A DNA stretch of 64,000 nucleotides from Drouetiella sp. Its GTDB lineage: Bacteria > Cyanobacteriota > Vampirovibrionia > Obscuribacterales > Obscuribacteraceae. Shown here one piece after another: positions 1,680-63,918 of this stretch. Under the pieces are notes generated by a model. That model ran no database searches. It was not told the DNA's origin and saw only the letters and a list, made by a program, of their open reading frames with translations. The position numbers and the translations under genes are program-made. The DNA is taken from positions 70,313 to 134,312 of the forward strand of contig DATNPZ010000001.1 of NCBI GenBank assembly GCA_036702965.1, written 5' to 3'. Position 1 is the stretch's first letter. Every line of letters begins with the position of its first letter.

Positions 1680-1905
1680 GACTGCGTTTATCCCAGAATA
1701 GTGCAGGCACGTTACCCAGCGACCAGAGCTCGACGCCAGTGGCACTAACTTGCCTACGACCAGAGTTCGAGACAGTGGCACTGACTTGCCCTACGACCAG
1801 AGTTCGGCAAAAGTGGCACTGACCAGCCCTATGACTCGAGTTAGACGACAGTGGCACTGACTTGCCCTACGACTCGAGTTCGACAACAGTGGCAATGCCT
1901 TGCCC
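1680..1905. repeat. Tandem array, ~36-38 bp unit, ~5-6 copies, seeded from the thiolase 3' coding end plus stop
   Basis: The landmark AGTGGCA occurs at 1738, 1774, 1812, 1850 and 1888. The copy at 1867-1905 is the thiolase C-terminus ([12 protein letters not shown]) plus TAG. The outermost copy (~1680-1716) is degenerate. Confidence 0.85.
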
Positions 1906-3075
1906 TACGCCGATGCACATCGTCGCCAATCCATAGCGAGAACCGCGTCGTTTCATTTCGTGAATGAGCGTGCCGAGAATGCGCGAGCCGCTGCTTCCCA
2001 GAGGATGTCCTAGCGCGATAGCGCCACCATTCACGTTTACTTTCTTGCTATCCAATCCCAGTTCTCGCATGCAGCAGAGTACCTGCACAGCAAATGCTTC
2101 GTTCAATTCGATCAAATCGAGGTCTGAAATTTTCAGACCAGCTCGCTCGACAGCCTTACGGGTAGCTGGTATCGGTCCAGTGCCCATGATTGATGGATCG
2201 ACTCCAGCGACTGCAGAGCTGACAAATCTCGCGATAGGAATAAGACCAAGCTCTTTGCACTTCTCACGCGACATGATCAATAAGGCGCTTGCACCATCAT
2301 TGATACCAGAAGAATTGCCGGCAGTAACGGAGCCATTTTCACGAAACGCGGCTTTGAGCTTCTTCAAGTCTTCCAGCTTGGTTTCTGGACGAGGCTGTTC
2401 GTCAACAGAGAACAATTCAGGCTCAGCGCTTCCTTTTTTCTTCGGCAATTGAACAGGGACTATTTCATTCTCGAACTTACCAAGACGCGCAGCCTCAGCG
2501 TATCTCATCTGACTTTCAATCGCGTACTGATCTTGATCTTCGCGAGAAATCTTGAATCGTTCGGCGACATTCTCCGCAGTTTCACCCATCGAATCAGGTG
2601 GGAACATATCGGCAAGCTTCTTGTTCACGAAGCGCCAACCAAGCGTCGAATCGACGAGTTTCTGATTGCCGCGAGCAAAAGCTGTCGTATTTTTGAGCAC
2701 TACGTATGGTGCGCGAGTCATCGACTCGACGCCGCCAGCGATGTAAATGTCGCCATCGCCAACCTGGATCGCGCGACAAGCATCGTTGACTGCCATCAAA
2801 CCCGATCCGCAAAGTCGATTCACCGTGGCGCCAGGAACAGCGGCAGGCAAACCAGCAAGCAGCAAAGCCATTCTAGCCACGTTGCGATTATCCTCGCCAG
2901 CTTGATTGGTGCAACCGAGGATAACATCTTCGATCTGACCGGGGTTGACGAAGTTACGCTTGAGTATTTCTTCGATCACAACCGAGGCTAAATCGTCCGG
3001 TCGAATATCCTTCAACGCGCCACCGTAACGTCCTATCGGCGTACGTACAGCATCAACGATCACTGCTTCTTTCAT
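1867..3075 (-). CDS. Acetyl-CoA acetyltransferase (thiolase)
   Basis: 402 aa. Thiolase signatures are NRLCGSGL (active-site Cys), [15 protein letters not shown] and CIGVGQGIA. Confidence 0.95.
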
Positions 3076-5160: not shown

Positions 5161-5478
5161 ATCAAGAAGCCTGGTGGATTACTTGAATCGGAGCATGGGA
5201 TTAAGAGACCTGTTGAATTTCACGAATCAGAGCATGGGATTAAGAGTCCTTGGTGGATTTCTCGAATCAGAGCAAGGGATTAGGAGTCCTTGGTGGATTT
5301 CTCGAATCAGAGCAAGGGATTAAGAGTCCTTGGTGGATTTCTCGAATCAGAGCATGGGATTAAGAGTCCTTGGTGAATTTCTCGAATCGGAGCAAGGGAT
5401 TAAGAGGCCTGGTGAATTTCTCGAATCAGAGCAAGGGATTAAGAGGCCTGGTGGATTTCTCGAATCAGAGCAAGCAGG
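5161..5478. repeat. Tandem array, 39-40 bp unit, 8 copies, seeded from the 3' coding end plus stop of the 5439..7301 gene
   Basis: The landmark TTAAGAG/TTAGGAG occurs at 5201, 5240, 5280, 5320, 5360, 5400 and 5439, and there is a degenerate copy at 5161. The copy at 5439-5478 encodes LLALIREIHQAS plus TAA on the minus strand. Confidence 0.9.
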
Positions 5479-7301
5479 ATATCCCGATTCAATTCCTGAC
5501 TTACGTATTCGATGTACTTCACCTGCCAGTTTTCAATGTCTTTGATAATCACTGACAACGATGTCTGCGCAGACCGAGCTGCCGCCATATCGACTCCAAC
5601 TTCGCCACCAGCACCCATCGTGAAAATTCGCGCGCGACCAGAGTATCCAATACTGTCGCGCAGAGCCAGACGCAAAAACGCAAGACTGAGATTTGGGGTA
5701 ATTTTCTCTCCAACAGCGACAACAAGCTGCTGGAACTTGTCGAGAGGTCCGTGCAGATCCACTTTCGGCACCTTCAAAAGCTCGTGATGCAAAAGCAAAT
5801 TAACGGCAGTTGTCAGCTCAGATGTGGTGATATCACCCATGTACTTGATGGCAGTAGCTAGTGTCGTCAAACCATCCATTGCAGCCCAGACACGCTGTGC
5901 TCGCTCCATCTCCGCGGTGGAGACGGGCTTCTTCTCCTGTGGATCTTCCAACTGAGTTTCGAGTATCTCTTTTTCGTCAGGCACTTTCTCAAGAACAGAG
6001 TTCATTCCCTTCGGCAATTTCTTCAATACGGAATCCGTGTTGTCTTTTGCCAGCGCAGCATCGAGCAACAGCTTGTCCAGAGGCTTGCTCGTCTTACACG
6101 CTTCTTTGGCCAGATCGGCTGGTGGTGTGCGTTGAATGAATACGAAAATTCCTTCTGTCCACGACGACGCAAATTCAGTGACGGCCGAATTGCCAACAAC
6201 TTTTCCAACCTTTGCGTGCGTGATTCGACCAATCTCGAACATGGCTCGGAATTGCATATCTTTGTATTCAACAGAGAGCACGCCGGTTTCACGGTTGGTG
6301 GCAATATTTTGCAAAAGATTGGAAGGATCTGTTGTACCAAGGTGGCCGACAAGCGACTGCACTTGCGTCTCTTCGCCAGAGGTCTTGACCAACTTCACCT
6401 TTTCGGATTCAGATGATTGACCGTAGAACGAAAGATCCTGCAAAGCAATTTCGAGCTGCCGCGTGTTGAAAAATCCCTTCTTCACTGCAAGCGGACCGAT
6501 AGTGACGCGGTCTTTGACAGGAGTGGACTGGAGCTCAAACAGCAATTCGTCTAATTGATCTTGAGTCACCAGCCGTGATGCTAAAAGCAAATCCTTCAAA
6601 CTGAATGGAGTTTGATTGCGGAAGCAATTAACAAGAAACGGAACTTTGTTGAAAATCGGATAAATTGCTCGACTTTGCTCTAGTGCTTTCAACTCCTCGA
6701 TCAGCTCCTCTGCATCCATTTTCGATTGAGTTGTGAGTCGATGACTGATTGTGCTCAGTGGGGTGTAATTGTCGATAGCCGCGATAACGGCATTTCGTCG
6801 GCGAGGCTGATCCATCCCGGCTTTCAGTTTTATGCCGAGGTGAGTCAGGACTGGAACTGTTGACATCAACACCTGTTGTGACAGGTCCGTGCTCTCTTCG
6901 CTGAATCCGCCACTCTTTCCGAGGACGGATTGCACGTTGCGCGCGAGCGGTGCAGAGTAATCAAACAGCTCGGAATGATTTTCGAAAATGTGAAAGTTGA
7001 GCGAGCCCATCAAAGTATCTCGTACAATGGCGACCGCTTTATCAGACTTGAGAAAAACCAGGGCGCCCTGTACTTCAAGAAGCTGGTTTGCGAGGTGACC
7101 TGCTTCAATCAGAACTTCTGCGGGGAACAAGTATCCGCAGGCAGTCGCATCGATCAAGACCGCATCAAATAGATGCTTACCACCGGCGAGCCCTTGCAAT
7201 TCGGCGATCAAATCCGCCCCATATTTGAGAACAACAACGTTCTCCTGGGCCATCATGCGGCTTAACCGCTCGGTTATAACCTCGTTGGATTCGACTACCA
7301 T
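5439..7301 (-). CDS. DUF4388-like domain protein with receiver-like N-terminus
   Basis: The segment TGVLSVEYKDMQFRAMFEIGRITHAKVGKVVGNSAVTEFASSWTEGIFVF matches the DUF4388 pattern as I remember it. One GspE-N/MshEN-like helix pair is present (LVTQDQLDELLFELQ...GFFNTRQLEIALQ). The ORF track starts at TTG 7343, and the first ATG (MVVESNEV) is at 7301. Confidence 0.55.
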   Translation of the reverse strand: MVVESNEVITERLSRMMAQENVVVLKYGADLIAELQGLAGGKHLFDAVLIDATACGYLFPAEVLIEAGHLANQLLEVQGALVFLKSDKAVAIVRDTLMGSLNFHIFENHSELFDYSAPLARNVQSVLGKSGGFSEESTDLSQQVLMSTVPVLTHLGIKLKAGMDQPRRRNAVIAAIDNYTPLSTISHRLTTQSKMDAEELIEELKALEQSRAIYPIFNKVPFLVNCFRNQTPFSLKDLLLASRLVTQDQLDELLFELQSTPVKDRVTIGPLAVKKGFFNTRQLEIALQDLSFYGQSSESEKVKLVKTSGEETQVQSLVGHLGTTDPSNLLQNIATNRETGVLSVEYKDMQFRAMFEIGRITHAKVGKVVGNSAVTEFASSWTEGIFVFIQRTPPADLAKEACKTSKPLDKLLLDAALAKDNTDSVLKKLPKGMNSVLEKVPDEKEILETQLEDPQEKKPVSTAEMERAQRVWAAMDGLTTLATAIKYMGDITTSELTTAVNLLLHHELLKVPKVDLHGPLDKFQQLVVAVGEKITPNLSLAFLRLALRDSIGYSGRARIFTMGAGGEVGVDMAAARSAQTSLSVIIKDIENWQVKYIEYVSQELNRDILLALIREIHQAS

Positions 7302-7466
7302 CGCCCTCAGCTCAACAGCCGCCAGATTCGGACACCCCGCCAACAGGTAGTATGCCCAGGAAAGTACGATAGCAAATCCTTACGGTAAACTTCCGGTATT
7401 GGCTTTTGCGGAAGTTGCTTTGAATTGCCATAATCTAGACTTATCAGACGCAGAAAGTCGGAGCGG

Positions 7467-9242
7467 ATGTCGAATCGAATGAAAATTTCCGGTCTCCGAT
7501 TAGTCAAATCATTCTCAGTCGTAAGTTGCTGTAGTGTTCTTGGCGGGTTGTTGTGCGGCGCTGCTGTGGCGCAAAATCAAACGTGGACACAGTCGCCGAA
7601 TCCTATGCAAAACCAATATGGGATGCAGTCCTCAAATAACTCGCAAAATCAGTACGGGATGCAGTCCCCGAGTAACTCGCAAAATCGATATGGGATGCAG
7701 TCCCCGAGTAACTCGCAAAATCAACATGGGATGCAATCCCCGAATAACTCGCAAAATCAATATGGGATGCAGTCCCCAAATAACTTGCAAAATCGATATG
7801 GAATGCAGTCCCCAAACAACTCGCAAAATCAGTACGGGATGCAGTCCCCAAACAACTCGCAAAATCAGTATGGGCTGCAGTTTCCAAACAACTCGCAAAA
7901 TCAGTACGGGATGCAGTCCCCAAACAACTCGCAAAATCAATATGGGATGCAGTTCCCGAATAACTCGCAAAATCAATACGGGGTGCAGTCCCCAAATAAC
8001 TCGCAGAATCAATATGGGATGCAGTCCCCGAATAACTCGCAAAATCAATATGGGATGCAGTCCCCGAATAACTCGCAAAATCAATATGGAATGCAATCCC
8101 CGAATAGCTCACAAAATCAGTATGGAATGCAATCCCCGAATAGCTCACAAAATCAGTATGGAATGCAGTCCCCGAGTAACTCGCCCTTTAGTACTTCGAA
8201 TCTTCAGGACGAAGCAAACTTGAATCCCGAGGCTAAATCACTTTTTTCACAAGCTGTTCGACTCTTAAAGACCAACAAAGCTTATCAAGCCAGAGATCTA
8301 CTTGAACGCGCTTCGATGCTCGCTCCCAAGTCAGCGGAAATACACTGCAATCTTGGTTTGGCTTATCAAAATTCCGGCAATATGCAAAAAGCGTTGACTG
8401 AATTCAAAACAGCGCTGACACTCAATCCCAGCATGCCCGAAGCGAAACTGAACCTAGCTGGATGTTACCAGAGCATGGGTGCAAACAAAGATGCGATTAC
8501 ATGGTATTCAGCTTATTTACTGGATAGAGACGCAAACGATCCCCAGCGAAAGCAAATAGACGATATCATCACGGCGCTGAAGCAAACGAATCCAAAGACC
8601 GGCGGAGATGCAAATGCGGGCGACTATTTTACTAGTGTCACCGCCGACGGTGCATTTCGATGGACAAAAGAAAAGTTGCCAATCAAAGTTTACGTTCAAA
8701 ACGCGATTGTAAACTCTGCCGGGAATCCCGTTTCAGGATTTAAACAATCGTTTCGGACTTCCCTTCTCAGCGCATTCAAAGATTGGTGCGAAGCTTCCAA
8801 CAATCGCATAGCCTACGTTGTAGTTCCTGATAAAGAGCACGCTGATATTTACTGCACCTGGACGTCAGACCCGATAGAAGTAACTGATAATGGCACTTCC
8901 AGCGAGCGCGGAGCTGCGAAAGTAATAGTTAAAGGAAATAACATCGAGCGCGCTACTTTAAAAATCCTGACTCGCCCAGTACTCGAAGATGGCTTGCTGA
9001 GCGAGGATGATATGACCAAAGCATGTTTGCACGAAGTTGGACACGTTTTGGGACTTCAGGGTCACTCAACGAATAACCACGACGTTATGTTCTTCACGGT
9101 AGATACAGCAACCGTTTGGCCGGTTTTATCGAGAAGGGACAAATCAACGATTGCCAAGCTGTATAAAGACTATCCAGTCATGACAACGATGTCAGCAAAG
9201 AAGAAGGGTTCGACGAACGCGCGCGGAGCCCACCAGCGCTGA
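7467..9242 (+). CDS. Secreted Q/N-repeat - TPR - metzincin (matrixin-like) zinc metalloprotease
   Basis: 591 aa. The signal peptide ends ...GAAVA-Q. It is followed by 16 copies of QNQYGMQSPNNS, then TPR repeats (AEIHCNLGLAYQNSGNMQKALTEFKTALTLNP), then a C-terminal HEVGHVLGLQGH (HExxHxxGxxH) motif with a Met-turn candidate VMF. Confidence 0.75.
   Translation: MSNRMKISGLRLVKSFSVVSCCSVLGGLLCGAAVAQNQTWTQSPNPMQNQYGMQSSNNSQNQYGMQSPSNSQNRYGMQSPSNSQNQHGMQSPNNSQNQYGMQSPNNLQNRYGMQSPNNSQNQYGMQSPNNSQNQYGLQFPNNSQNQYGMQSPNNSQNQYGMQFPNNSQNQYGVQSPNNSQNQYGMQSPNNSQNQYGMQSPNNSQNQYGMQSPNSSQNQYGMQSPNSSQNQYGMQSPSNSPFSTSNLQDEANLNPEAKSLFSQAVRLLKTNKAYQARDLLERASMLAPKSAEIHCNLGLAYQNSGNMQKALTEFKTALTLNPSMPEAKLNLAGCYQSMGANKDAITWYSAYLLDRDANDPQRKQIDDIITALKQTNPKTGGDANAGDYFTSVTADGAFRWTKEKLPIKVYVQNAIVNSAGNPVSGFKQSFRTSLLSAFKDWCEASNNRIAYVVVPDKEHADIYCTWTSDPIEVTDNGTSSERGAAKVIVKGNNIERATLKILTRPVLEDGLLSEDDMTKACLHEVGHVLGLQGHSTNNHDVMFFTVDTATVWPVLSRRDKSTIAKLYKDYPVMTTMSAKKKGSTNARGAHQR
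7572..8183 (+). repeat. In-frame 36-nt coding tandem repeat (16 full copies plus 1 degenerate)
   Basis: The nucleotide unit caaaatcaatatgggatgcagtccccgaataactcg is repeated head-to-tail and encodes QNQYGMQSPNNS. All three frames on both strands give long spurious ORFs here. Confidence 0.95.
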
Positions 9243-13707: not shown

Positions 13708-14799
13708 TCAGAAACGCTCGGTTGTGAACGAAATTGGCGCATCTGGAATTTGCACTTTTGGCCAGCCTTCTGGATGGTCGCTCCAGAAGCCAGTCACAAG
13801 CTGAACGAGCTGCCCCGGCGTAAGTCCTTTGTCGTTGTTTTGACACATCACAGCAAGCGGATCACGCATTGAAACCTTACTCAAATTGACGTTCAAAGCC
13901 TTCTCAAACGCTTCCAAATTTACTACCCGAGAGAGATGCCCTGTGCTCAAGCGAATCACATTCGTCTGATCGATCAATCCCAACTTCAAGAGGCGCTCTG
14001 GCGTCGAATCAAGCCACTCGACGCTGCTATATTGGTTTCGCATGTTGGCGAAAAGTGCTAAGCCGTCTTTAAATGCATTATCCGAAAGGTAGACCCACTC
14101 TGCCACAACAAGTCGCCCCTTTTGTTGCGACCGCCCCAGATCCAAAATCATGTATCCATCTTCGTGTACAAGCGTTTGCCAAACAAAGTCTGGACCGAAA
14201 ATACTGGCCATACGCTGCCAGCGTTTCTCACTGCGGCGAATGCCTAAATTGCCGTTAGAGAGCCACTGCTCGCGCAATGCTGCTGCTTTTTCGTGACGAT
14301 TGCCGGGCACAATCGTGTAATTCTTCGCGCTTCCAAAGTTGCTCAAGTGCTCGAAGTAATCCAGGTTCAACTCAATTTGATAATGCCAATCCGAGACCGC
14401 CCATCCCATCGATTCGTAAATCGAAGGCTTCGACGCGCCCAGCATGGACAGCGGAATTTTTCGTCTGTGCGCTGACTTGAGGCACTCAGTCAGTAAAGCT
14501 TTTACCAGCCCCTGTCCTCGGCGCGTCGGAGTGCTCGCGACTGCAGCAATGCCAAGACAAGGAATCCATTTGCCGAAGGCACGAACTTCGAAGTCGTGCA
14601 TACCAACCACGGCCCCCAATTCTTCGCCGATGTAAGCGCCTAGAACCGAGTCCAACTCATTCTCGGCGTAGTCTCTCCAGAAAGCGCGGCGTAAATCGCC
14701 AAAAGATAGCACCCAGACATCAACCGCTTTTTCCAACTCAGGACGACTGATCGGTTTGACGGAAAAAGGCAGATGTTCGCGCGGGTCTTTCGTAGACAT
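13708..14799 (-). CDS. GNAT family N-acetyltransferase, Eis-like architecture
   Basis: The acetyl-CoA binding region is LGIAAVASTPTRRGQGLVKALLTECL, and the long C-terminal extension is typical of Eis-type enzymes. The start was moved to the ATG at 14799 (MSTKDPRE). The ORF track extends to 14880. Confidence 0.6.
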   Translation of the reverse strand: MSTKDPREHLPFSVKPISRPELEKAVDVWVLSFGDLRRAFWRDYAENELDSVLGAYIGEELGAVVGMHDFEVRAFGKWIPCLGIAAVASTPTRRGQGLVKALLTECLKSAHRRKIPLSMLGASKPSIYESMGWAVSDWHYQIELNLDYFEHLSNFGSAKNYTIVPGNRHEKAAALREQWLSNGNLGIRRSEKRWQRMASIFGPDFVWQTLVHEDGYMILDLGRSQQKGRLVVAEWVYLSDNAFKDGLALFANMRNQYSSVEWLDSTPERLLKLGLIDQTNVIRLSTGHLSRVVNLEAFEKALNVNLSKVSMRDPLAVMCQNNDKGLTPGQLVQLVTGFWSDHPEGWPKVQIPDAPISFTTERF

Positions 14800-14919
14800 A
14801 AGAGAAATACCAAAAGTTGCGGGCACATCATATCGCGATATGCAATCAATATTTTCCACACAACAATAAAATTGCACCACCGTTATCAGCCAGTCAGACC
14901 GGATTTGCGGTGGAACGAA

Positions 14920-14943
14920 TAATTAAGCGATATCGCTTAAAAA
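14920..14943. repeat. Dispersed palindromic element copy (perfect 18-bp palindrome)
   Basis: The sequence is ataaTTAAGCGATATCGCTTAAaaat. It lies between divergent genes. Confidence 0.85.
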
Positions 14944-15073
14944 TCCAGGTGCCTGAGGACGCCGGTTGCGCTTTTGCTTCCAGGAGAGGTGTCGCGTGAT
15001 TTACGTATTTGCGTGCGTGGATGTCACTGCTATCCTCTTCACAACTAGGGACAGCCTTTGAGGTCCGCGTGTA

Positions 15074-16561
15074 ATGAGCAATGAACAATTGCTTGGTTCG
15101 CGTCAGCGTCAGTTCATCGATGGACTGCCGGAACACTCGCCGACGAACCAGCTAGATCAACGGAATCCACTGTCTGAAGAGTATTCGAACCACGTGCTCA
15201 CGAACCGCGAGGGCACAACATCTGCACCGCTGCTGCGCGTTGAGAACAGCAATCCTGGCGCATCCATCTCAGCCCGCGACGCCAGCCAGCCGAAAAGCGA
15301 CGCGTCAGCACCCTCAACCTCGAGCGATGATAAAAGCGCATCGGGTCGTTCTGCAGGCGACACCACTGGTAGTGGCGACGCCTCAACGGGCAGCGGAGAA
15401 AAACTCTCTCTGCCTCAAGCTAAAATAGCATTTTCAGAAGAACACAAAATTAAAATTTCAACCGAGCACGACAAATTCGTCTATTCAATGCAGTACGGCG
15501 GCGCACAGCATAAGCTTTTCGAAACGAGCGCGGATCAAAAAGGTTTGGACAGCGCTTCAACTCAGCTCAAAAGTCTAGTCGCAGACGAAGAGAAAAGTCT
15601 CTCAGCAGCGTACAAAGTATCGTTTGCGAAAGCTGGCGAATTCGTCGCAAAACAGAAGGAGACATCAGAAAGTCCTGATTCTGCAAACGCAGTTGTGGCA
15701 AGAGATCCTGAGTTATTCGAATTGAAAGGTATTCGCGCTGCGCTAGAAAAAAGCGGACCAAGCAACGTTGCTGCGGACGGAAAAACTGGTGTCAAATTCT
15801 ACGAATTGACAGACCGTGTGATCACCGGCATCGATTCACTCGCAACCTTTCAGCAAGATAAGGACAACAAACCTTCCGTCTATCTCTGGCCAAAATTTCA
15901 ATCACTAGATTTTGCAACGGAAGCAGACAGAACGCCAGATCAAAGGCTCCCATTCACAGACGGCAATCGCCGAGAATCCGTTGAAGGCGCGGTTATCCAC
16001 GAACTAGGTCACCACCAATTCAGCAAACTCGGATATGACCCCAAAACAAACCCAAACGCACTTGCATCCGAGACAAAATTGTTCGAACGCATGGGTTGGA
16101 AAAAGCGATTGGACGAGAAAGACTCAGACTACAACTGGCTTTTGCAAGCGAAAGAAAAATCCGATAACGGGCAACCCGCCACCTACTTGCCCGAATTCAC
16201 TGGGATGTTTTTCTCGTTTGGACGTTGGCGACAAGTTGGCGGACCAGAAAACGAGCAAGGACACCTCGGACCTGCAGATAAAATGCAACGTTTGGGCGAA
16301 TCCGAAATGGAGGCTCATGCACGTGTAAAACCTCCGTCCTGGTATTTCGAATCACCAGAAGAAGAGTACGCAAAAGCGGTTCGAGCCTTTCGAACAAGCA
16401 CTGAATCGCGGGCTGCATTGCAAAAAAACAGCCCTGAATTGTTCACCTTGATGAAGGAAAACGATCAGAGGGAGATCAACCAACTATACGGTACAAATTC
16501 CGACGGCACGCCGAAAAAGACTCGCAACGAAAATGGCGAGATAGTGGATTCGAAAAGGTGA
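15074..16561 (+). CDS. Hypothetical protein with HExxH zinc-peptidase motif
   Basis: 495 aa. The N-terminal third is Ser-rich and looks disordered. A single AVIHELGHHQF motif is present. No signal peptide was seen. Confidence 0.45.
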   Translation: MSNEQLLGSRQRQFIDGLPEHSPTNQLDQRNPLSEEYSNHVLTNREGTTSAPLLRVENSNPGASISARDASQPKSDASAPSTSSDDKSASGRSAGDTTGSGDASTGSGEKLSLPQAKIAFSEEHKIKISTEHDKFVYSMQYGGAQHKLFETSADQKGLDSASTQLKSLVADEEKSLSAAYKVSFAKAGEFVAKQKETSESPDSANAVVARDPELFELKGIRAALEKSGPSNVAADGKTGVKFYELTDRVITGIDSLATFQQDKDNKPSVYLWPKFQSLDFATEADRTPDQRLPFTDGNRRESVEGAVIHELGHHQFSKLGYDPKTNPNALASETKLFERMGWKKRLDEKDSDYNWLLQAKEKSDNGQPATYLPEFTGMFFSFGRWRQVGGPENEQGHLGPADKMQRLGESEMEAHARVKPPSWYFESPEEEYAKAVRAFRTSTESRAALQKNSPELFTLMKENDQREINQLYGTNSDGTPKKTRNENGEIVDSKR

Positions 16562-18236: not shown

Positions 18237-18722
18237 ATGCAAAAGGTAACACCGTTTTTGTGGTTTGATGAACAAGCAGAAGAAGCTGTCAACTTCTACA
18301 CGTCGATATTCAAGAATTCAAAAATCAAGCAAGTATCACGCTACGACAGAGACAGTGCTAAAGCTTCGGGGCGCGCGGAAGGCTCGGTCATGGTCATAAC
18401 TTTCGAACTGGATGGTCAGGACTACATGGCTTTAAATGGCGGTCCCGTGTTCAAATTCAATCCAGCGATCTCGTTTATGATCAACTGCGACACACAAGAA
18501 GAAATCGACAGAATGTGGGACGAGCTCAGCGATGGAGGCAGCATTCAAGGCTGCGGTTGGGTGACGGACAAGTTCGGAATTTCATGGCAAGTGGTGCCAA
18601 AAGTTTTCGGAACAATGATGAAAGATCCGGATGCTGCAAAAACACGTCGCGTCATGGCATCACTTTTGCAGATGCAAAAATTGGATATCGAGGCACTCGA
18701 AAAAGCATTCGCAGGCGTTTAA
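18237..18722 (+). CDS. VOC-superfamily protein, PhnB / 3-demethylubiquinone methyltransferase-like domain
   Basis: 161 aa. MQKVTPFLWFDEQAEEAVNFYTSIF...KFGISWQVVP is characteristic of this family. A GAGGAA RBS lies upstream. Confidence 0.85.
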   Translation: MQKVTPFLWFDEQAEEAVNFYTSIFKNSKIKQVSRYDRDSAKASGRAEGSVMVITFELDGQDYMALNGGPVFKFNPAISFMINCDTQEEIDRMWDELSDGGSIQGCGWVTDKFGISWQVVPKVFGTMMKDPDAAKTRRVMASLLQMQKLDIEALEKAFAGV

Positions 18723-18857
18723 TCACGCTTGTCGAGGGACAGCGCCTCGCAGGCGTTTAATCACGCTTGCCGAGAGACAGCACTCGCAGGCGTTTAATCA
18801 CGCTTGCCGAGGGACAGCACTCGCAGGCTTTTAATCACGCTTGCCGAGGGACAGAAT
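18709..18857. repeat. Tandem array, 37-38 bp unit, 4 copies, seeded from the 3' end plus stop of the VOC gene
   Basis: TCGCAGGCGTTTAA (TCGCAGGCTTTTAA in the last copy) starts at 18709, 18747, 18784 and 18821. The first copy contains the real FAGV codons plus the TAA at 18720-18722. Confidence 0.9.
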
Positions 18858-34682: not shown

Positions 34683-34762
34683 TCATTCCTTCAACACGCG
34701 GCACGGCGCTATTTCACGCGATGCGGCACGGGCTCCTTCACCACGATGCAGCCCAGCGTAAA

Positions 34763-35245
34763 TTACTTTGGCAAATCAAATGAAACTGGGTCGCCAACTT
34801 TGACGTTGTGTCTCTTCGCAAAACCTGCAGACACCTCGACTACTTGATTGACTTCAAGACCGGCTCCCTCTGGATATGTCGGGCAATCGCGTTCACTCTG
34901 AGCGCGGCAAGGTGGAACATTCTCGAACACCTTGATCACTTTTCCGTTTTTGACGAAAACCATGTCTAAAGAGATGAAGCAGTGCGCCATCCAAAAATTG
35001 ACTGGACGCGGCGGCTGGAAGAGAAAAACCATTCCCTGGTCTTCTGGCAGCGAAGTGCGATACATCAAACCGCGCTCGATCTCGGCCTCGCTTGCAGCTA
35101 CTTCTAACTTCACCTCAGTGTCACCCAGTTTCACCGTAGGCGCCTTGGCCTGAGCGGCTTGAGCCAGGGGCAACGCCGTCAAAATTGCTAACGCAGACAG
35201 AATAGCAACTTGACGCAAGAGATTTAGACGTTTCATAACCACCAC
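34763..35245 (-). CDS. DUF192 domain protein (secreted)
   Basis: Signal peptide plus GLMYRTSLPEDQGMVFLF...FWMAHCFISLDMVFV, the characteristic DUF192 core. Confidence 0.75.
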   Translation of the reverse strand: MVVMKRLNLLRQVAILSALAILTALPLAQAAQAKAPTVKLGDTEVKLEVAASEAEIERGLMYRTSLPEDQGMVFLFQPPRPVNFWMAHCFISLDMVFVKNGKVIKVFENVPPCRAQSERDCPTYPEGAGLEVNQVVEVSAGFAKRHNVKVGDPVSFDLPK

Positions 35246-36975: not shown

Positions 36976-37548
36976 TTGCGCATTCTCGGAATAGACCCTG
37001 GCACAGCCACAGTCGGATATGGCGTAGTGCAATCGTTTGGTGGCGGAGGCAAATCCTCGCTGCGTTATGTCACCTCTGGCATCATAAAGACAACGAATCG
37101 AGACACCACTGGCGACAGGCTCTCTATTATACGAGCAGATATGCTCGAACTTATCAGTCTATATAATCCTGATGTAGTTTCAGTCGAAGCAATTTTCTTT
37201 TTCAAAAATGCCAAAACTTTGGTGCCGGTTGCGCAAGCTCGAGGCGTAATTCTCGAAGCTGCCGCCAGCAGGAAGCTTCCGACATTCGAATATACGCCGA
37301 TGCAAGTCAAGCTGCATTTAACCGGATACGGTCGAGCCGAAAAATTGAGCGTGCAAACGATGATCGCTGAGCTCTTAAATTTGCCAGAAATAATCAAGCC
37401 CGACGATGCATCTGACGCGCTTGCCATCGCAGTATGTCATGCACGTATGTGTCCGATCCCTTATGTTGCAGAGGCTCCGGCAAAAGTGGACGAAGGACCA
37501 ATCAATGTCGCCGAAGCACCAATCAATGTCGCAGAAGCACCAATCTGA
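36976..37548 (+). CDS. ruvC: Crossover junction endodeoxyribonuclease RuvC with repeat-containing C-terminal tail
   Basis: (M)RILGIDPGTATVGYGVV and DASDALAIAVCHA are present. The start is a TTG at 36976. The tail ends GPINVAEAPINVAEAPI, encoded by a 21-nt tandem repeat. Confidence 0.9.
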   Translation: MRILGIDPGTATVGYGVVQSFGGGGKSSLRYVTSGIIKTTNRDTTGDRLSIIRADMLELISLYNPDVVSVEAIFFFKNAKTLVPVAQARGVILEAAASRKLPTFEYTPMQVKLHLTGYGRAEKLSVQTMIAELLNLPEIIKPDDASDALAIAVCHARMCPIPYVAEAPAKVDEGPINVAEAPINVAEAPI

Positions 37549-56315: not shown

Positions 56316-56686
56316 GTCCATCCAGCTCTTCCAAATCCTCACGCTCTCAGGATATCCAGCTCTCTCAATCCTTAATGCCTCTGGATATCCAGCTCTCTCA
56401 AGCCTTACTGCCTCTGGATATCCGGCTCTTTCAGAATCCTCACGCTCTCAGGATATCCAGGTCTTCCAAATCCCCACGCTCTCAGGACATCCAGCTCTTC
56501 CAAATCCTCACGTTCTCAGGATATCCAGCTCTTTCAATCCTTACGGCCTCAGGATATCCAGCTCTTTCAATCCTTACGGACTCAGGATATCCAGCTCTTT
56601 CAATCCTTACGGACTCTGGATATCCGGCTCTTTCAGAATCCTCACGCTCTCAGGATATCCAGCTCTTCAAAATCCTCACTGTCCTC
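56316..56686. repeat. Intergenic tandem array, 33-35 bp unit, 11 copies
   Basis: The unit is GGATATCCAGCTCTTTCAATCCTTACGGACTCA with variants. Every unit starts with the 8-bp palindrome GGATATCC (GGACATCC in one copy, and degenerate GTCCATCC in the first). There are no unique spacers. Confidence 0.9.
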
Positions 56687-56752
56687 GGACATGTGAAAAC
56701 GGCGAACTCTTCCCTGACCAGCGGGTGAGTCGTACCGCCCGGCTCCACACCG

Positions 56753-56868
56753 CCCCTCGGACATGACGCCCCTCGGACATACGGACGGTCCCTCTGATAC
56801 ACGGTCCCTCTGATACACAGTCCCTCGGACACATAATCCCTCGAATACACAGTCCCTCGGGCACACAA
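56753..56868. repeat. Intergenic tandem array, 16 bp unit (one 20-bp copy), 7 copies
   Basis: The copies read CCCCTCGGACATGACG, CCCCTCGGACATACGGACGG, TCCCTCTGATACACGG, TCCCTCTGATACACAG, TCCCTCGGACACATAA, TCCCTCGAATACACAG, TCCCTCGGGCACACAA. Confidence 0.85.
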
Positions 56869-57108
56869 TCAATGGACCCCACGAAGCGAAAAGCCCTCGC
56901 GCTTCCGCACCCCCGACATCAGAAACAACAACCCGAGAGCGTCGCTTGCTTATAGAAGCCCACCAGTGGACGTTTTCCAGCCTTTACAATTCCTTTGCAA
57001 AAAAACCTCCAAAAAACATAAGTGCTTTACGCGGTTGCGATTAGATAAATAGTGTCAGCAGTTGGACTGTTGATTCATAAAACAAAGCGACGTTAAACCG
57101 GAGCTGAA

Positions 57109-59077: not shown

Positions 59078-59362
59078 GTGAGAGCAAGCAGCTGTTTTTT
59101 TCTTGTTATCACGGGTTACCATCGGATGCCTAGAGTCATAGGTTCACTAGTAGTGAGCCAAAAAGATACAGCAGCTAAATTCGTCCTCCATGAGCCCACA
59201 ACCACAGAATTGCCCTGGCAGAAACTGCGCGACAGGGAGCTTATCCGCGCATTCCTCGAGAAATTCTCACCGGCGTGCAGCGTGCAAACCGAAGGAATGA
59301 CGATCTACTCGGTCGATTGTGATGCGGCCGAATTAGAAGCTTGGTTTAAGAATCTTCCGTAA
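59078..59362 (+). CDS. Hypothetical protein
   Basis: 94-aa ORF with a GTG start preceded by AAGGAG 5 nt upstream. No motif was recognised. Confidence 0.4.
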   Translation: MRASSCFFLVITGYHRMPRVIGSLVVSQKDTAAKFVLHEPTTTELPWQKLRDRELIRAFLEKFSPACSVQTEGMTIYSVDCDAAELEAWFKNLP

Positions 59363-59377
59363 GAAGACAATCAATTG

Positions 59378-59557
59378 TCACTGTTTCGCGTCGCGAACAT
59401 AAGTCAATGGTTTGGCATCGCGAACATAAGTCATGGTTTGGCATCACGAACATAAGTCACGGTTTGGCATCACGAACATTCACGGTTTGGCATCACGAAG
59501 ATAAGTCATGGTTTGGCATCGCGAAGATAAGTCATGGTTTGGCATCGCGAACATAAA
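59378..59557. repeat. Tandem array, 23-27 bp unit, 7 copies, seeded from the 3' coding end plus stop of the GT-C gene
   Basis: Units start with TCA (TGA on the minus strand) at 59378, 59404, 59431, 59457, 59480, 59506 and 59532. The last unit, TCATGGTTTGGCATCGCGAACATAAA, encodes YVRDAKP plus stop. Confidence 0.9.
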
Positions 59558-61202
59558 CGCGATACTTCCACGGAACGACGTCAGGAGATTCGGAAAACGA
59601 ATCTACTTCACGGAATCCAGATAACAACCGCTGGGAAAAATTTGACTGCGCGCGACAGGAATCCAACTCTTTCGACTCTTGCTTGAGAAAAATGATCCGC
59701 GGCTGGCGAGCACTCGCGTCGTCCAAAATCTTTCCGATCTCCTCGCCAACACGTTCATGAAATTTGGCAGCACTCGTAGAATTATTGCTGGAGATCGCCT
59801 GAAACTCGGCGAGTTTGTTGATACCCATCAAGAATGGAAAAGGGTATCGACTGCCCAACTGCACACCGTACTGTAAAATCGCCGGGTACTCGGGCAGCAG
59901 AATCTCACTGATCATAAGCTCTCTATCGCCCGGTTTAACCTCTCGCATTAAAGTGGCAAGCATTGGACTGACTTTTGCTTTTTCATCGAGTGCCTCTTTC
60001 AAGCGAGCGCTCAGCGCACGACCCGCTGTCGGTTCTTCTAAACTAAAAGCATTAATTGCTGGCAAAATTTTTGCACTGTCCATCCCAAAGAATCCCAGAC
60101 CAGCTACCGCCAGAGTGACCATCACCAATTTCTCGTAAAAGCCTTCGGACGTTCCGGACTGCTTCAACTTGAACCCCGCGCCACGGATTAGCGCGGCGAC
60201 GACAATGCCAGCAAGCATGAGAATGCCTAGCCACATCGGGATCTTGTAGTAGTCCCACCACTTCCGCTGAATCACCACACTCAAGTATCCAGCAATCGTG
60301 AATACAATTAGTGGCGGGATGATGGGATGTTTTTTCCGCAAAAAGGACGCAGTCAAAACACTGCCTAAAAAGGCTACGAATATCTGAGGCCAGTATCTTC
60401 CGCCCAGAACCAAACTGAGTAACCAGCTACATCCATAGAAATTTTGGAAAAGCGGATATTCAACAATGATTTGTTTGAATGCGTCCCGCATCGCATGTGG
60501 TACCAGTAAAAAATGCACCGGATACGACACCAACGCAATCAAGCAAGTGATTGTTTCTGGAGTGAAAAGCGTGCGCCACTTTCTGAACCTGAACAACCAG
60601 TAGAGTTCGCACAGAATCGGCATCGTCAGAAACTGAGGTTTTAAACACAATCCGATCGCTGCAAACAATCCAGCGATGATTGCAATGGTGCGATTTGGTG
60701 TTTGTCCTTCCCATCGAGACCAGCGCACAAAGAAGAACGGTAAGTAAGAGAGTAAGAAAATATGTTCCCGCTGACCAAATTCGCGGCCGATGACAGAACC
60801 CGTGCAGGCAATCACCGCCAGAACACAAGCCAGATACAGCCATTTCTCGTCGTCTAAAAATCTTCGTTTAACCGTTGCCAGGATCAGACAAAAGGAGAAG
60901 ATGGCAAACAATTCAATCACAAACTTGAAGATGACAATTATGTGCACGTTGATCAGGTGAGCGACAAATGCCGGAATGACACTCAAGTAGATGATCAGTG
61001 GTGGATTGATGTCCACAAAGTCCACATACGGAACGCCTCCGTTCAACAACATTTGCGCGAAATGCAAATACATCGAAGGGTCCCAGTTCAACTGCAAAGG
61101 ATCAGCAAGTTGCACAACGGTGGAATGCGCGAAACAAAAAACATAGACAGCGATCAAACACAAAAATGCGCTGCGACTGATCGTGTTCTGAGGAGTGTTC
61201 AT
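59532..61202 (-). CDS. Polytopic membrane glycosyltransferase, GT-C fold (GT39/83/87-like)
   Basis: 556 aa with about 12 TM helices. An N-terminal loop GGVPYVDFVDINPPL resembles the acidic first-loop motif of polyprenyl-phosphate-sugar dependent transferases. There is a soluble C-terminal domain. Confidence 0.5.
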   Translation of the reverse strand: MNTPQNTISRSAFLCLIAVYVFCFAHSTVVQLADPLQLNWDPSMYLHFAQMLLNGGVPYVDFVDINPPLIIYLSVIPAFVAHLINVHIIVIFKFVIELFAIFSFCLILATVKRRFLDDEKWLYLACVLAVIACTGSVIGREFGQREHIFLLSYLPFFFVRWSRWEGQTPNRTIAIIAGLFAAIGLCLKPQFLTMPILCELYWLFRFRKWRTLFTPETITCLIALVSYPVHFLLVPHAMRDAFKQIIVEYPLFQNFYGCSWLLSLVLGGRYWPQIFVAFLGSVLTASFLRKKHPIIPPLIVFTIAGYLSVVIQRKWWDYYKIPMWLGILMLAGIVVAALIRGAGFKLKQSGTSEGFYEKLVMVTLAVAGLGFFGMDSAKILPAINAFSLEEPTAGRALSARLKEALDEKAKVSPMLATLMREVKPGDRELMISEILLPEYPAILQYGVQLGSRYPFPFLMGINKLAEFQAISSNNSTSAAKFHERVGEEIGKILDDASARQPRIIFLKQESKELDSCRAQSNFSQRLLSGFREVDSFSESPDVVPWKYRVYVRDAKP

Positions 61203-61314: not shown

Positions 61315-62349
61315 ATGAAGCATTTAGTAACCGGTGGTAGTGGTTACCTTGGTAATCTGATTGCGCGCAGATTTGCGGCACGTGGCGATCAAGTCATAGC
61401 ACTTGATTTGTGGAAAGACGACTCGGTACCGGCAGGCATTCAATTCGTTCACGGAGACGTGACGGACCGCGACATGGTGCGACAGGTGATGCAAGGTGTA
61501 GACATCGTGCACCACACTGCCGCGCTTGTACCACTGACAAAATCCGGCGGAAAATTCGATCATGTCAATGCCGAGGGCAGTCGCATAGTAGCTGAAGAGG
61601 CAGCGGCGGCGAAGGTCGAAGCATTTATCCACCTCAGCTCCTCCGCGATTTTTGGCACACCCGATTGCCCTGCCGATAACTCCAGTCCACTCGGTCCAAA
61701 AGAGATTTACGGCAAGAGCAAACTCGAAGGCGAACGTGCAGTTCAAGCAGTCGCTGAGAAGTCGGGCATGAAGCTGATTTCGGTTCGGCCGCGAACAATT
61801 ATCGGCAAGGAACGGCTGGGTATATTCCAAATTCTCTTTGATTGGATCAAAGACAACGCCAACATTTTTGTTATCGGCGACGGCTCTAACAAAATCCAAT
61901 TCGTCCACACAGATGATTTGATCGATGCCTACATGCTCGTCCACGATGTCGGAAAACCCGGTCTGTACAACATGGGAACCGATCGATTCGGCACGTTGAG
62001 AGATGACCTGGAAGCACTTTGCCGCCACGCCGGTTCGAACAGTCACGTGCGCTCGCTGCCAAAGGGGCTGACCATCTCCACGCTTTCACTACTCGATCAA
62101 TTGGGACTGAGCCCGCTCGCTCCCTGGCATTATCTGACGTACGGCGAACCGTTCTACTTCGACGTGAGCGAGCTGAAGCAACTGGGATGGCAACCCAAGT
62201 ACTCGAATTTGGAAATGCTGCAAGAATCTTACGACTCCTTCGTTGCGGGGCATGACGAGCTCATGAAACAGAAGGGCGGGTCGGCACATAGAAAACCTGT
62301 AAAGCAAAGCGTGCTGGCAGTCGCCAAGATAATGTCCAGATTGATATAA
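61315..62349 (+). CDS. NAD-dependent epimerase/dehydratase (extended SDR)
   Basis: The MKHLVTGGSGYLGNLI Rossmann motif and the YGKSK catalytic YxxxK are present. Confidence 0.88.
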   Translation: MKHLVTGGSGYLGNLIARRFAARGDQVIALDLWKDDSVPAGIQFVHGDVTDRDMVRQVMQGVDIVHHTAALVPLTKSGGKFDHVNAEGSRIVAEEAAAAKVEAFIHLSSSAIFGTPDCPADNSSPLGPKEIYGKSKLEGERAVQAVAEKSGMKLISVRPRTIIGKERLGIFQILFDWIKDNANIFVIGDGSNKIQFVHTDDLIDAYMLVHDVGKPGLYNMGTDRFGTLRDDLEALCRHAGSNSHVRSLPKGLTISTLSLLDQLGLSPLAPWHYLTYGEPFYFDVSELKQLGWQPKYSNLEMLQESYDSFVAGHDELMKQKGGSAHRKPVKQSVLAVAKIMSRLI

Positions 62350-62394
62350 GCGACCCAGGGTCGGGAAAAAAATACTGGGCGACCGCTTCGAGAC

Positions 62395-63918
62395 ATGAGC
62401 GAAACTAAAAGACCTACTACTTTTGTGCGCTGGCAAACTGCAACTTTGACCTGCGTTGTTGCTGCGTTGCTCGTCAAACTGGTTTTCTACAACTTTGATA
62501 CAAAACAGCTAGAAACGTTGAGTTCAACGAGTCATCTCGTGGAGTGGATGGCAATCGCGGTTTTCGTTTATATCGGGGGATTTATCCTCCGAGGCATGAG
62601 ATTGCGCTGGCTCATCGAACTTGATTGCCAATGTAATTTATTGACGGCGATGAACGTCATCATGATTGGACATGCACTGAATTGCATCGCTCCTTTCAGA
62701 CTTGGCGAGCCAGTTCAAGCGGGAGTGTTGAGTGAACGGACTGGATTGAGCTTTGTGCAGTCACTGAGTGTGGTGGCACTGCAACGATTGTTTGATCTGC
62801 TGGCGATCGTTGTTATTCTGCTGATTGCAACAAGCAGCATCCCCCTGCAGGGATTTATGGTGGAGTGGCGTGAGCGCAGTATCGAATTTTGTCTTATGTT
62901 CAGTGTGGCGGCGATCGCGATGGCGTCCGTACCGAGGTGGGCGCTGAACGTCACATCCATGCTCACTTACAAAGTAACACCTAGCGTACACAAGTATCTC
63001 ATTGTGGCACTACACGATATCCTGCGCGCATTGAGACCATTCAATTCTTTGAGCAAAACAACCAGGATTTTTGCGCTAAGCATAGCGGTTTGGTCCACAG
63101 AAGCTCTGTTCTTCGGATGTGTAATGGTGGCTCTGTCACTGCCATTTTCGCCAAGGGTCGCGGCCGCTGTTATGAGTTACACGAATTTGTCGATTGCATT
63201 TCCGACCGCTCCAGCATTTTCCGGACAATATCAACTTTCAAGCGTACATTCGCTACTCACTCTGTTTGCGACTTCACAACAGATCAATGTGGATGCGCTC
63301 ACTGCGAGCCATTTCGCCGCACTCGTTCACATCACTTTCTTAACTGTCACTTCTACATGGGGACTGACCGCACTAGCATCATATGTGGTGCGCAAAGGTA
63401 ACGTAGTTTTATCCAAACTTGAAACGCAACCACTGGTAATCAGCCCCGAAGAACCAATTGTGCCCCTGGAAGTTTTGGCTTCAACACAAGGTCCGGGGAA
63501 TCAGCTTTTCCAACCAGCACCATTCTGGTACGCGCTAGCTGAGAGCCTGGTCGGTGAGAATCATGTACAGATGGTCAATGCCGAGAGAACGGAGATCTTT
63601 GGAGAAACAGTTCGTTTCATGCTCGAAACGTTATCAGCCTTGCCAATGCTCCTGCGTTTGCAGCTATGGGTGGGGATAGCAGGCTTTCGATGCATTACAG
63701 GCGTAATGCACCTGCGCCGATTCACAGGAATGACACTCGAACAACGATGTGGAATCGTCAGAAATTGGGCGGAGGGTCCGATTCCAGTTTTCAGAAAATT
63801 GTTTCGCCCGCTAAGGAGCCTGGCGCTGCTTGGATTTTTCGAAAGTACCAAAGTGCAAGAAGCTTTACGCGAAAGCGTGAAGCGAGAAGCCATTTCCGAG
63901 ATTCCTCGCAATGGATGA
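62395..63918 (+). CDS. Flippase-like (LPG-synthase-TM family) membrane protein with extra C-terminal domain
   Basis: FILRGMRLRWLI...CIAPFRLGEPVQAGVL matches the RxxRW...P.RxGE pattern of the family. It has about 8 TM helices and then ~170 aa of unknown function. Confidence 0.55.
   Translation: MSETKRPTTFVRWQTATLTCVVAALLVKLVFYNFDTKQLETLSSTSHLVEWMAIAVFVYIGGFILRGMRLRWLIELDCQCNLLTAMNVIMIGHALNCIAPFRLGEPVQAGVLSERTGLSFVQSLSVVALQRLFDLLAIVVILLIATSSIPLQGFMVEWRERSIEFCLMFSVAAIAMASVPRWALNVTSMLTYKVTPSVHKYLIVALHDILRALRPFNSLSKTTRIFALSIAVWSTEALFFGCVMVALSLPFSPRVAAAVMSYTNLSIAFPTAPAFSGQYQLSSVHSLLTLFATSQQINVDALTASHFAALVHITFLTVTSTWGLTALASYVVRKGNVVLSKLETQPLVISPEEPIVPLEVLASTQGPGNQLFQPAPFWYALAESLVGENHVQMVNAERTEIFGETVRFMLETLSALPMLLRLQLWVGIAGFRCITGVMHLRRFTGMTLEQRCGIVRNWAEGPIPVFRKLFRPLRSLALLGFFESTKVQEALRESVKREAISEIPRNG

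Follow-up and report, generated by a model that had tools for sequence, protein, structure and literature searches.

Positions 59378-59557 of the window (the whole stretch of 64,000 nucleotides analysed here) hold a tandem array, named array F, in which the tail of a minus-strand gene, stop codon included, stands seven times in a row next to a convergent gene. With a probability of roughly 0.7, we read this array as a young, locus-specific minisatellite, that is a VNTR-type tandem duplication, which arose from slipped-strand duplication and whose extra copies are neutral.

Seven copies of a gene tail between two convergent genes

We looked at the layout of the repeat both with TRF and by hand. 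TRF detected a tandem array at 59383-59556 with a period of 26, 6.8 copies, 90% matches, 4% indels, and a score of 255. The manual parse gave seven head-to-tail units without spacers over 59378-59557, reproducing exactly the unit starts from 59378 to 59532 that the sequence-only reading had listed. On the minus strand, the unit reads CTTATGTTCGCGATGCCAAACCATGA, with a few variants between units. Unit 7 (59532..59557, minus strand, 26 bp) is the gene-borne founder unit; its composition is A7 C6 G6 T7 and its codons, (G)TT TAT GTT CGC GAT GCC AAA CCA TGA, encode ...VYVRDAKP*. As had been proposed, it corresponds to the last 8 codons plus the TGA of the minus-strand ORF 59532..61202, which ends ...YRVYVRDAKP-TGA with the stop at 59532-59534. 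The six further copies (units 6 to 1, 59378..59531, minus strand) are non-coding, and each of them still ends in TGA. They start at 59506 (unit 6, 26 bp), 59480 (unit 5, 26 bp), 59457 (unit 4, 23 bp, without CTT), 59431 (unit 3, 26 bp), 59404 (unit 2, 27 bp), and 59378 (unit 1, 26 bp). The extra base of unit 2 turns ...CCATGA into ...CCATTGA, so that the TGA is retained, and the greatest degeneracy is found in unit 1, the most distal one. Each unit had also been said to begin with the stop triplet: the TGA is present in the units, but its place at the beginning is merely a choice of phase. Independently of phase, the periodicity sets in one period, or 25-26 nt, before the end of the stop.

A 20-mer search over the whole window gave 6 matches to the unit at <=3 mismatches, all of them in the array, while 0.00 were expected from shuffles (n=100); no copy was found elsewhere in the window. 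In public metagenome contigs, 4 isolated single matches were obtained and no array. Copies at many unrelated loci, a case that the sequence-only reading had raised against itself, were thus found neither in the window nor in the metagenome scan, and these results indicate that the unit is not a dispersed element. Within the array, some variants are common to neighbouring units: a C at position 6 (units 6-5), a T at position 11 (units 5-3), and a G at position 23 (units 5-4). Such overlapping variant blocks among neighbours are expected, being the pattern predicted by unequal exchange with breakpoints inside units.

The gene that bears the founder unit (59532..61202, minus strand) encodes a 556-aa polytopic membrane protein, assigned from its ORF, an AlphaFold2 model, and Foldseek as a GT-C fold glycosyltransferase. 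Pfam, NCBIfam, and PDB sequence and profile searches gave no match for this protein, so the earlier naming as a membrane glycosyltransferase holds at the level of the fold and finds no support in those searches. The AlphaFold2 model, for which 40 homologues were used as input, reached a pLDDT of 87.5 and a pTM of 0.90. Its best Foldseek matches were STT3, ArnT, PglB, AftA, DPY19, and PMTs, all at probability 1.0, with TM values of 0.42-0.49 against the first five. Residue D41 is invariant in the 40 homologues. With its polytopic fold and a conserved acidic residue in the first periplasmic loop, the modelled product qualifies as a GT-C protein; homologues were found in Obscuribacterales MAGs. 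The closest relatives, at 46% identity, end FRVYVRQHDGR or FRVYLRQPEGR, and the last beta-strand in the AlphaFold model is KYRVYVRD (residues 545-552), so that the gene-borne unit is predicted to encode a buried terminal beta-strand. The orthologue C-termini together with this strand indicate that the array F unit is native coding sequence copied outward. The reverse case, a repeat invading the gene, is ruled out by the native C-terminus, as judged from the orthologue alignment and the strand in the model.

The neighbours of the GT-C gene (window 61315-63918, L001 4686-7292) encode an NAD-dependent epimerase, a membrane protein of the LPG_synthase_TM family, and a fused GMC-oxidoreductase/epimerase of 868 aa; the neighbourhood looks like an envelope glycoconjugate cluster. 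At this locus, relatives carry two paralogous GT-C gene copies. The content of the window is that of an ordinary chromosome (PGK, GAPDH, pyrophosphatase, cox, bc1, RuvC, Lnt, and a two-component system), and the window proteins that were scanned include neither a reverse transcriptase nor a transposase.

On the other side of the array lies a small convergent gene (59078..59362, plus strand) with its TAA stop at 59360-59362. Homologues and gene calls in independent assemblies indicate that it is a real gene. Its homologues (P0361, 80% identity, 81 aa; P0362 and P0363, 45% and 43%) align from residue Met17 on, and the true start is probably this Met17, at 59126. The array had been described as filling the gap up to the stop at 59362, which it nearly does: 15 nt (59363..59377) are left over, and this residual spacer is likely the original gap between the two stop codons. 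The 80% homologue did not serve to establish the ancestral state of the spacer, since it adjoins a different gene, convergent and encoding a MEDS-domain protein, and offers only a similar spacer of 20 nt.

Stop-containing arrays at other genes of the same organism

The other long-unit arrays were printed in phase with the nearest stop, and TRF results were combined with ORF positions by script. Arrays made of a gene tail with its own stop, in units of 26-51 bp, were found at four genes of the window and at a fifth gene that lies 6 kb outside it, past the window end. Array A (1720..1909, minus strand, 38 bp x 5) repeats the last 12 codons plus the TAG of a thiolase gene (1867..3075). The C-terminus of this thiolase is native, positions 1-399 of the 401 of the NCBIfam profile being covered. 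Array A is flanked by CGTAG, and array F is without visible flanking microhomology, a point that speaks against the slippage reading. Array B (5172..5474, minus strand, 39-40 bp x 7.7) repeats the tail plus the TAA of a DUF4388/PatA_N gene (5439..7343). The unit of array D (18704..18854, plus strand, 37 bp x 4.1) is composed of the last 19 nt of gene 18237..18722, TAA included, and of 18 nt of downstream hairpin sequence. Array F, at 26 bp x 6.8 and on the TGA of the GT-C gene, is the fourth. Array G (51 bp x 4.2; L001 1049-1259, about window coordinate 69944-70154 and thus past the window end) has as its unit the last 16 codons plus the TAA of gene L001 1213..1779, which encodes a 188-aa protein without Pfam hit; it ends with a 12-nt partial unit beside a convergent gene. 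The five arrays have five unrelated units. Array F had been taken for one of several stop-anchored arrays, and the one with the shortest unit. The same build was recovered at the three other window arrays, and 26 bp is the shortest unit within the window, the others being 37, 38, and 40 bp. The array D unit (18723-18854) forms a strong hairpin with a stem of ~11 bp (z = -3.2), followed by TTTAA; in array D, a terminator-like stem-loop has thus been multiplied in tandem, and its 3' arm overlaps the gene end.

Altogether, over 71 kb with 57 genes, about 5 of the genes have a stop-containing tail array, and none was found at start codons. Three stop-overlapping arrays, all weak, were found in 1.19 Mb of other genomes (67 loci, many of them Obscuribacterales), which corresponds to ~2.5 per Mb as against ~70 per Mb here. 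In closer relatives (~150 kb), two stop arrays were seen, one of 16 bp x 4.6 in L086 and one of 43 bp x 2 in L097. The first (L086/L088 381-454) runs from the GTGA of the gene's stop, and every unit closes with TGA; the second (L097 20483-20569) is a duplication that includes the last 17 nt of the gene. We found no description of stop-containing gene-tail arrays in the literature on Obscuribacter-like or other bacteria.

Other repeats of the window were also observed. In the RuvC gene (36976..37548, plus strand), an in-frame repeat of 21 bp x 2.6 (EAPINVA) at 37491-37548 terminates exactly at the TGA; it lies within a C-terminal extension, the Pfam domain covering residues 3-155 of 190. Two arrays, at 56320-56667 (33 bp x 10) and 56788-56870 (16/32 bp), occupy the 1.1-kb gap between an HtrA-like protease gene (stop 56211) and an LTXXQ gene. 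The 33-bp array begins ~110 nt past the HtrA-like stop, is unrelated to the gene tail, and is not stop-anchored. A duplication of 25 bp x 2.1 at 34698-34749 is fully intergenic, in an 80-nt gap between co-directional genes, and its end lies 14 nt past the stop of gene 34763..35245.

The age of the arrays was approached by comparison with relatives. The organism is a member of the Melainabacteria/Obscuribacterales. Its thiolase is ~90% identical to proteins of 'Candidatus Melainabacteria bacterium' and 'Cyanobacteria bacterium SZAS-4', and three relatives with such a thiolase keep the gene order TPR-peptidase / PatA_N / LRV / thiolase / metallophosphoesterase. Neither array A nor array B is present in these three relatives, whose flanking proteins are ~90% identical and whose gene order is conserved. 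The thiolase is followed there by a spacer of 39-54 nt and PatA_N by one of 111-113 nt, as compared to 197 and 384 nt in the window, and the window spacers minus the extra units equal those of the relatives. The distal unit of array B keeps the relatives' ...GCTTCTTGA gene ending with the ancestral TGA, the flank following directly, while the functional gene end at this array has since changed to ...GCCTCTTAA. For the GT-C gene, a 46% orthologue for which DNA was at hand has no array in its 71-nt downstream gap. The best reading of these comparisons is that the arrays are young and lineage-specific.

Repeat tracts inside genes were seen in the same comparisons. The ORF 7467..9242 (plus strand) contains, at 7570-8184, an in-frame array of 36 bp x 17 encoding (QNQYGMQSPNNS)x17, directly after the signal-peptide-like N-terminus of a TPR + M10-peptidase protein. 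The orthologues of the three relatives are without this array and measure 384-415 aa, as against 591 aa here. In a related species (CoxA ~89-90% identical to that of the window), samples differ by 63 nt in the stretch of the cytochrome b gene that encodes the S/T/P-rich C-terminal tail (513 vs 534 aa). This difference lies in an in-frame tandem repeat of the 36-bp type (L079 15437-15513 and L080 9506-9582 vs L076 and L078; gene 14005..15546/15609) and is a true strain-level copy-number polymorphism in the lineage.

Origin of the array and competing explanations

In the origin that we favour, a first duplication, by replication slippage or unequal exchange, would have covered the final ~26 nt of the glycosyltransferase ORF, including the TGA. 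Further slippage would then have led to seven units, with breakpoints inside units giving rise to chimeric ones. The first unit would supply the complete native C-terminus and the stop, leaving the protein unchanged, and the six extra units would drift neutrally in the untranslated gap between the convergent genes. The array may thus persist because its first unit keeps the gene intact. More generally, purifying selection would act as a filter, under which duplications persist only in ORFs with units that are a multiple of 3, with the stop included, or fully between genes; such a filter would account for the stop-containing arrangement. We infer both the slippage mechanism and the filter. The six in-ORF arrays of the window all have units divisible by 3 (15, 18, 21, 33, 36, and 42 bp), and our tally counts none of the five stop-containing arrays (26, 37, 38, 40, and 51 bp) as such. 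Hairpin-promoted slippage was rejected as a shared cause, a strong unit fold being present in array D alone (z = -3.2) and not in F, A, or B.

The variation between units was then considered. In array F, the variants are G>C, C>T, A>G, T>C, and C>G, and 4 of the 6 unit variants alter a third codon position synonymously in the gene frame, which taken alone hinted at coding constraint on the downstream units. This bias was gone when arrays A, B, F, and G were pooled: the unique unit variants fell 8/14/15 on codon positions 1/2/3 (15/37 on the third, p = 0.26). The pooled variants include nonsense changes, and the units differ by indels. Altogether, the lack of codon-position bias, the nonsense changes, and the indels indicate that the downstream copies are not under coding constraint.

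The phasing of the units with the stop codon is left unexplained by slippage and the filter. Five of the eight non-coding arrays contain a stop, as compared to ~20% expected under a model of uniform placement among tolerated positions (p = 0.012), and five arrays stand at stops and none at starts (p = 0.03), both being post hoc figures on a small sample that go against the plain filter model. In arrays A, B, F, and G, four out of the five, the periodicity sets in one unit length before the end of the stop, so that the end of each unit falls 0-4 nt past a stop codon (p ~ 0.002, post hoc and on five arrays). This phase, together with the presence of five arrays at stops and none at starts among ~57 genes, speaks for a lineage-specific process that sets one breakpoint at the end of the translated region. 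The in-frame RuvC repeat that likewise ends exactly at its stop, the density of ~70 as against ~2.5 per Mb, and the array B distal unit, closed by the ancestral TGA with flank sequence right after it, point in the same direction. One possibility would be that the replisome or polymerase stalls at a barrier just past the stop and then slips back. The barrier might be RNA polymerase, either uncoupled or convergent, or else a small hairpin; an example at this array is GACAA-TTGA-TTGTC, which begins within the last TGA. A second possibility would be an RNA- or ribosome-linked step. We nevertheless hold a process of this kind to be unlikely. The statistics are post hoc and cover five arrays only, among which array D departs from the rule with 19 of its 37 nt in the gene, and stop-adjacent arrays of relatives and other genomes (L086, L097, L046, and L055) are without such a phase. 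No consistent hairpin or motif follows the arrays, and neither a reverse transcriptase nor another candidate enzyme was found in the window. Moreover, the spacer is only ~15 nt in the convergent pairs F and G, so that any intergenic breakpoint sits near a stop. The general statement, that an Obscuribacterales-like lineage has a mutational process seeding tandem duplications at the stop by re-copying the last 8-16 codons plus the stop right after it, seems to us quite doubtful. If true, it would mean that the termination of translation or transcription is coupled to DNA slippage, or that an RNA-templated step is involved. To our knowledge, there is no mechanism that 'sees' stop codons in DNA.

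It is very improbable that the array is a functional 3'-UTR or intergenic element, be it a series of binding sites, an element that governs transcript stability, or a spacer that sets the convergent units 169 nt apart in place of 15 nt. The array does lie in the 3' region of both convergent genes, and enrichment downstream of stop codons is a general trait of tandem repeats in prokaryotes (PMC12418385), for which a regulatory role has been suggested (PMC12418385, PMC9879509). RNA structure in array F is that of shuffled sequence (fold z = -0.34), however, and DNA folds of two units are unremarkable (z = -0.6 to -0.9). The terminator scan detected none inside the array, promoter-like sites are not enriched, and the Rfam 15 covariance models gave no match to 59378-59557 at E <= 1. 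The sole palindrome of the unit, TCGCGA, is disrupted in three units. The unit is just the local coding tail, different at each locus; the sister arrays are missing from close relatives, and units decay by indels.

We give next to no weight to the idea that the array is a reservoir of C-terminal variation, in which recombination of the gene-borne with downstream units would swap tails, giving for instance ...AYLRDAKP. The synonymous third-position variants of array F would fit such a reservoir, but the loss of this bias on pooling, the indels, and the nonsense changes go against it. The differences that the units encode are trivial, and the gene-borne unit would specify a buried terminal beta-strand.

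Finally, the chance that the array is a mis-assembled or inflated repeat of a metagenome-assembled contig is negligible. Every short-read contig does break within the array; still, at least five read sets enter it from both sides at 100% identity. Contigs from the short-read assemblies SRR12844110, SRR12844112, and SRR12844117 contain the whole GT-C gene and 82 nt of the array, identical to the window, and then stop. From the far side, contigs of SRR12844117, SRR12844120, and two other samples match the window at 100% as far as 59464. The two sets share 15 nt at the junction of units 3 and 4, and once the contigs, drawn from at least five read sets, are put together, each of the seven distinguishable units appears in unchanged order, which is as far as short reads can support the copy number. 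That independent short-read assemblies reproduce the seven units indicates that array F is not an assembly artefact; its reality, for which the sequence-only reading had named long reads as the check, is supported here by short ones. The sequence of the array was identical in all read sets carrying the gene, and no variation between samples was seen. Short-read contigs also break at the arrays of 56320-56870 (L091 starts at window 56633).

Relation to known repeat systems and significance

Several known types of repeat were considered and set aside. REP/BIME elements have a stable stem-loop in each unit, as do intrinsic terminators with an additional U-tract; there is no stable stem-loop per unit and no terminator in array F. 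In CRISPR arrays, the repeats are parted by unique spacers of similar lengths, and the units of array F are contiguous, without unique spacers. A DGR is made of two VR/TR repeats of ~100 bp with adenine-specific mismatches and a reverse transcriptase nearby. Array F resembles a DGR in that a copy of the 3' end of an ORF stands just downstream of this ORF, but it is not a pair of ~100-bp repeats, its mismatches are not adenine-specific, and no reverse transcriptase was present among the window proteins scanned, so that it was rejected as a DGR target.

As a probably neutral minisatellite, array F shares with bacterial minisatellites and VNTRs the head-to-tail contiguous units in the 10-100 bp range and the locus-specific unit. 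A close parallel is VNTR3239 of M. tuberculosis, a lineage-specific array between rnc and fpg1 that abuts the codon boundary of a flanking gene (PMC2734929). Both are lineage-specific, touch a codon boundary of a neighbouring gene, have a unit of 10-100 bp in a short intergenic gap, and are presumed to have arisen by slippage, and species related to the carrier of VNTR3239 have only a few bp at that place. They differ in that the array F unit consists wholly of the last codons and stop of the flanking gene, and in that the read sets compared for array F are identical. The MIRU are one dispersed family with units of 40-100 bp at ~40-50 loci, within operons, between co-transcribed genes whose stop and start they overlap, and possibly transposed (PMC3184786, summarising Supply et al. 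1997). Like them, the arrays described here are intergenic direct repeats with ends overlapping adjacent genes. Unlike them, each locus has its own unit, and array F has a 26-bp unit and convergent flanking genes. Membership of array F in the MIRU was rejected on these grounds, namely the five unrelated units, the uniqueness of unit F, its length of 26 bp, and the convergent genes.

The tandem repeats of Borgs, which are perfect and A-rich, lie on an archaeal extrachromosomal element; their units are unique to each locus, always divisible by 3 in ORFs and mostly not in non-coding DNA, and a selection filter has been described for them (PMC9879509). The likeness to the present window consists in the many independent arrays with locus-unique units, divisible by 3 in ORFs and mostly not in non-coding DNA, and in in-frame arrays that put disordered Q/N- or S/P-rich segments into secreted proteins (compare the Borg-type 'aaTR' with the array at 7570-8184). 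In contrast to the Borg repeats, the arrays here have 83-92% matches (90% with indels for array F), are not A-rich, and lie on a bacterial chromosome, Obscuribacterales-like.

Altogether, array F is probably one of a lineage-specific burst of gene-tail arrays that arose by tandem duplication and are neutral. The array shows that tandem repeats are tolerated when they arise from gene tails with their stops, and such tails may even be a preferred source. Arrays of this kind systematically break short-read assemblies right after stop codons. The organism is a non-photosynthetic relative of cyanobacteria in which young repeats of 26-51 bp are unusually abundant; they touch ~9% of the genes in 71 kb and are reminiscent of Borgs. 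Should the stop phasing prove to be genome-wide, it would suggest that replication slippage is tied to the end of translation or transcription by a link not recognised so far.
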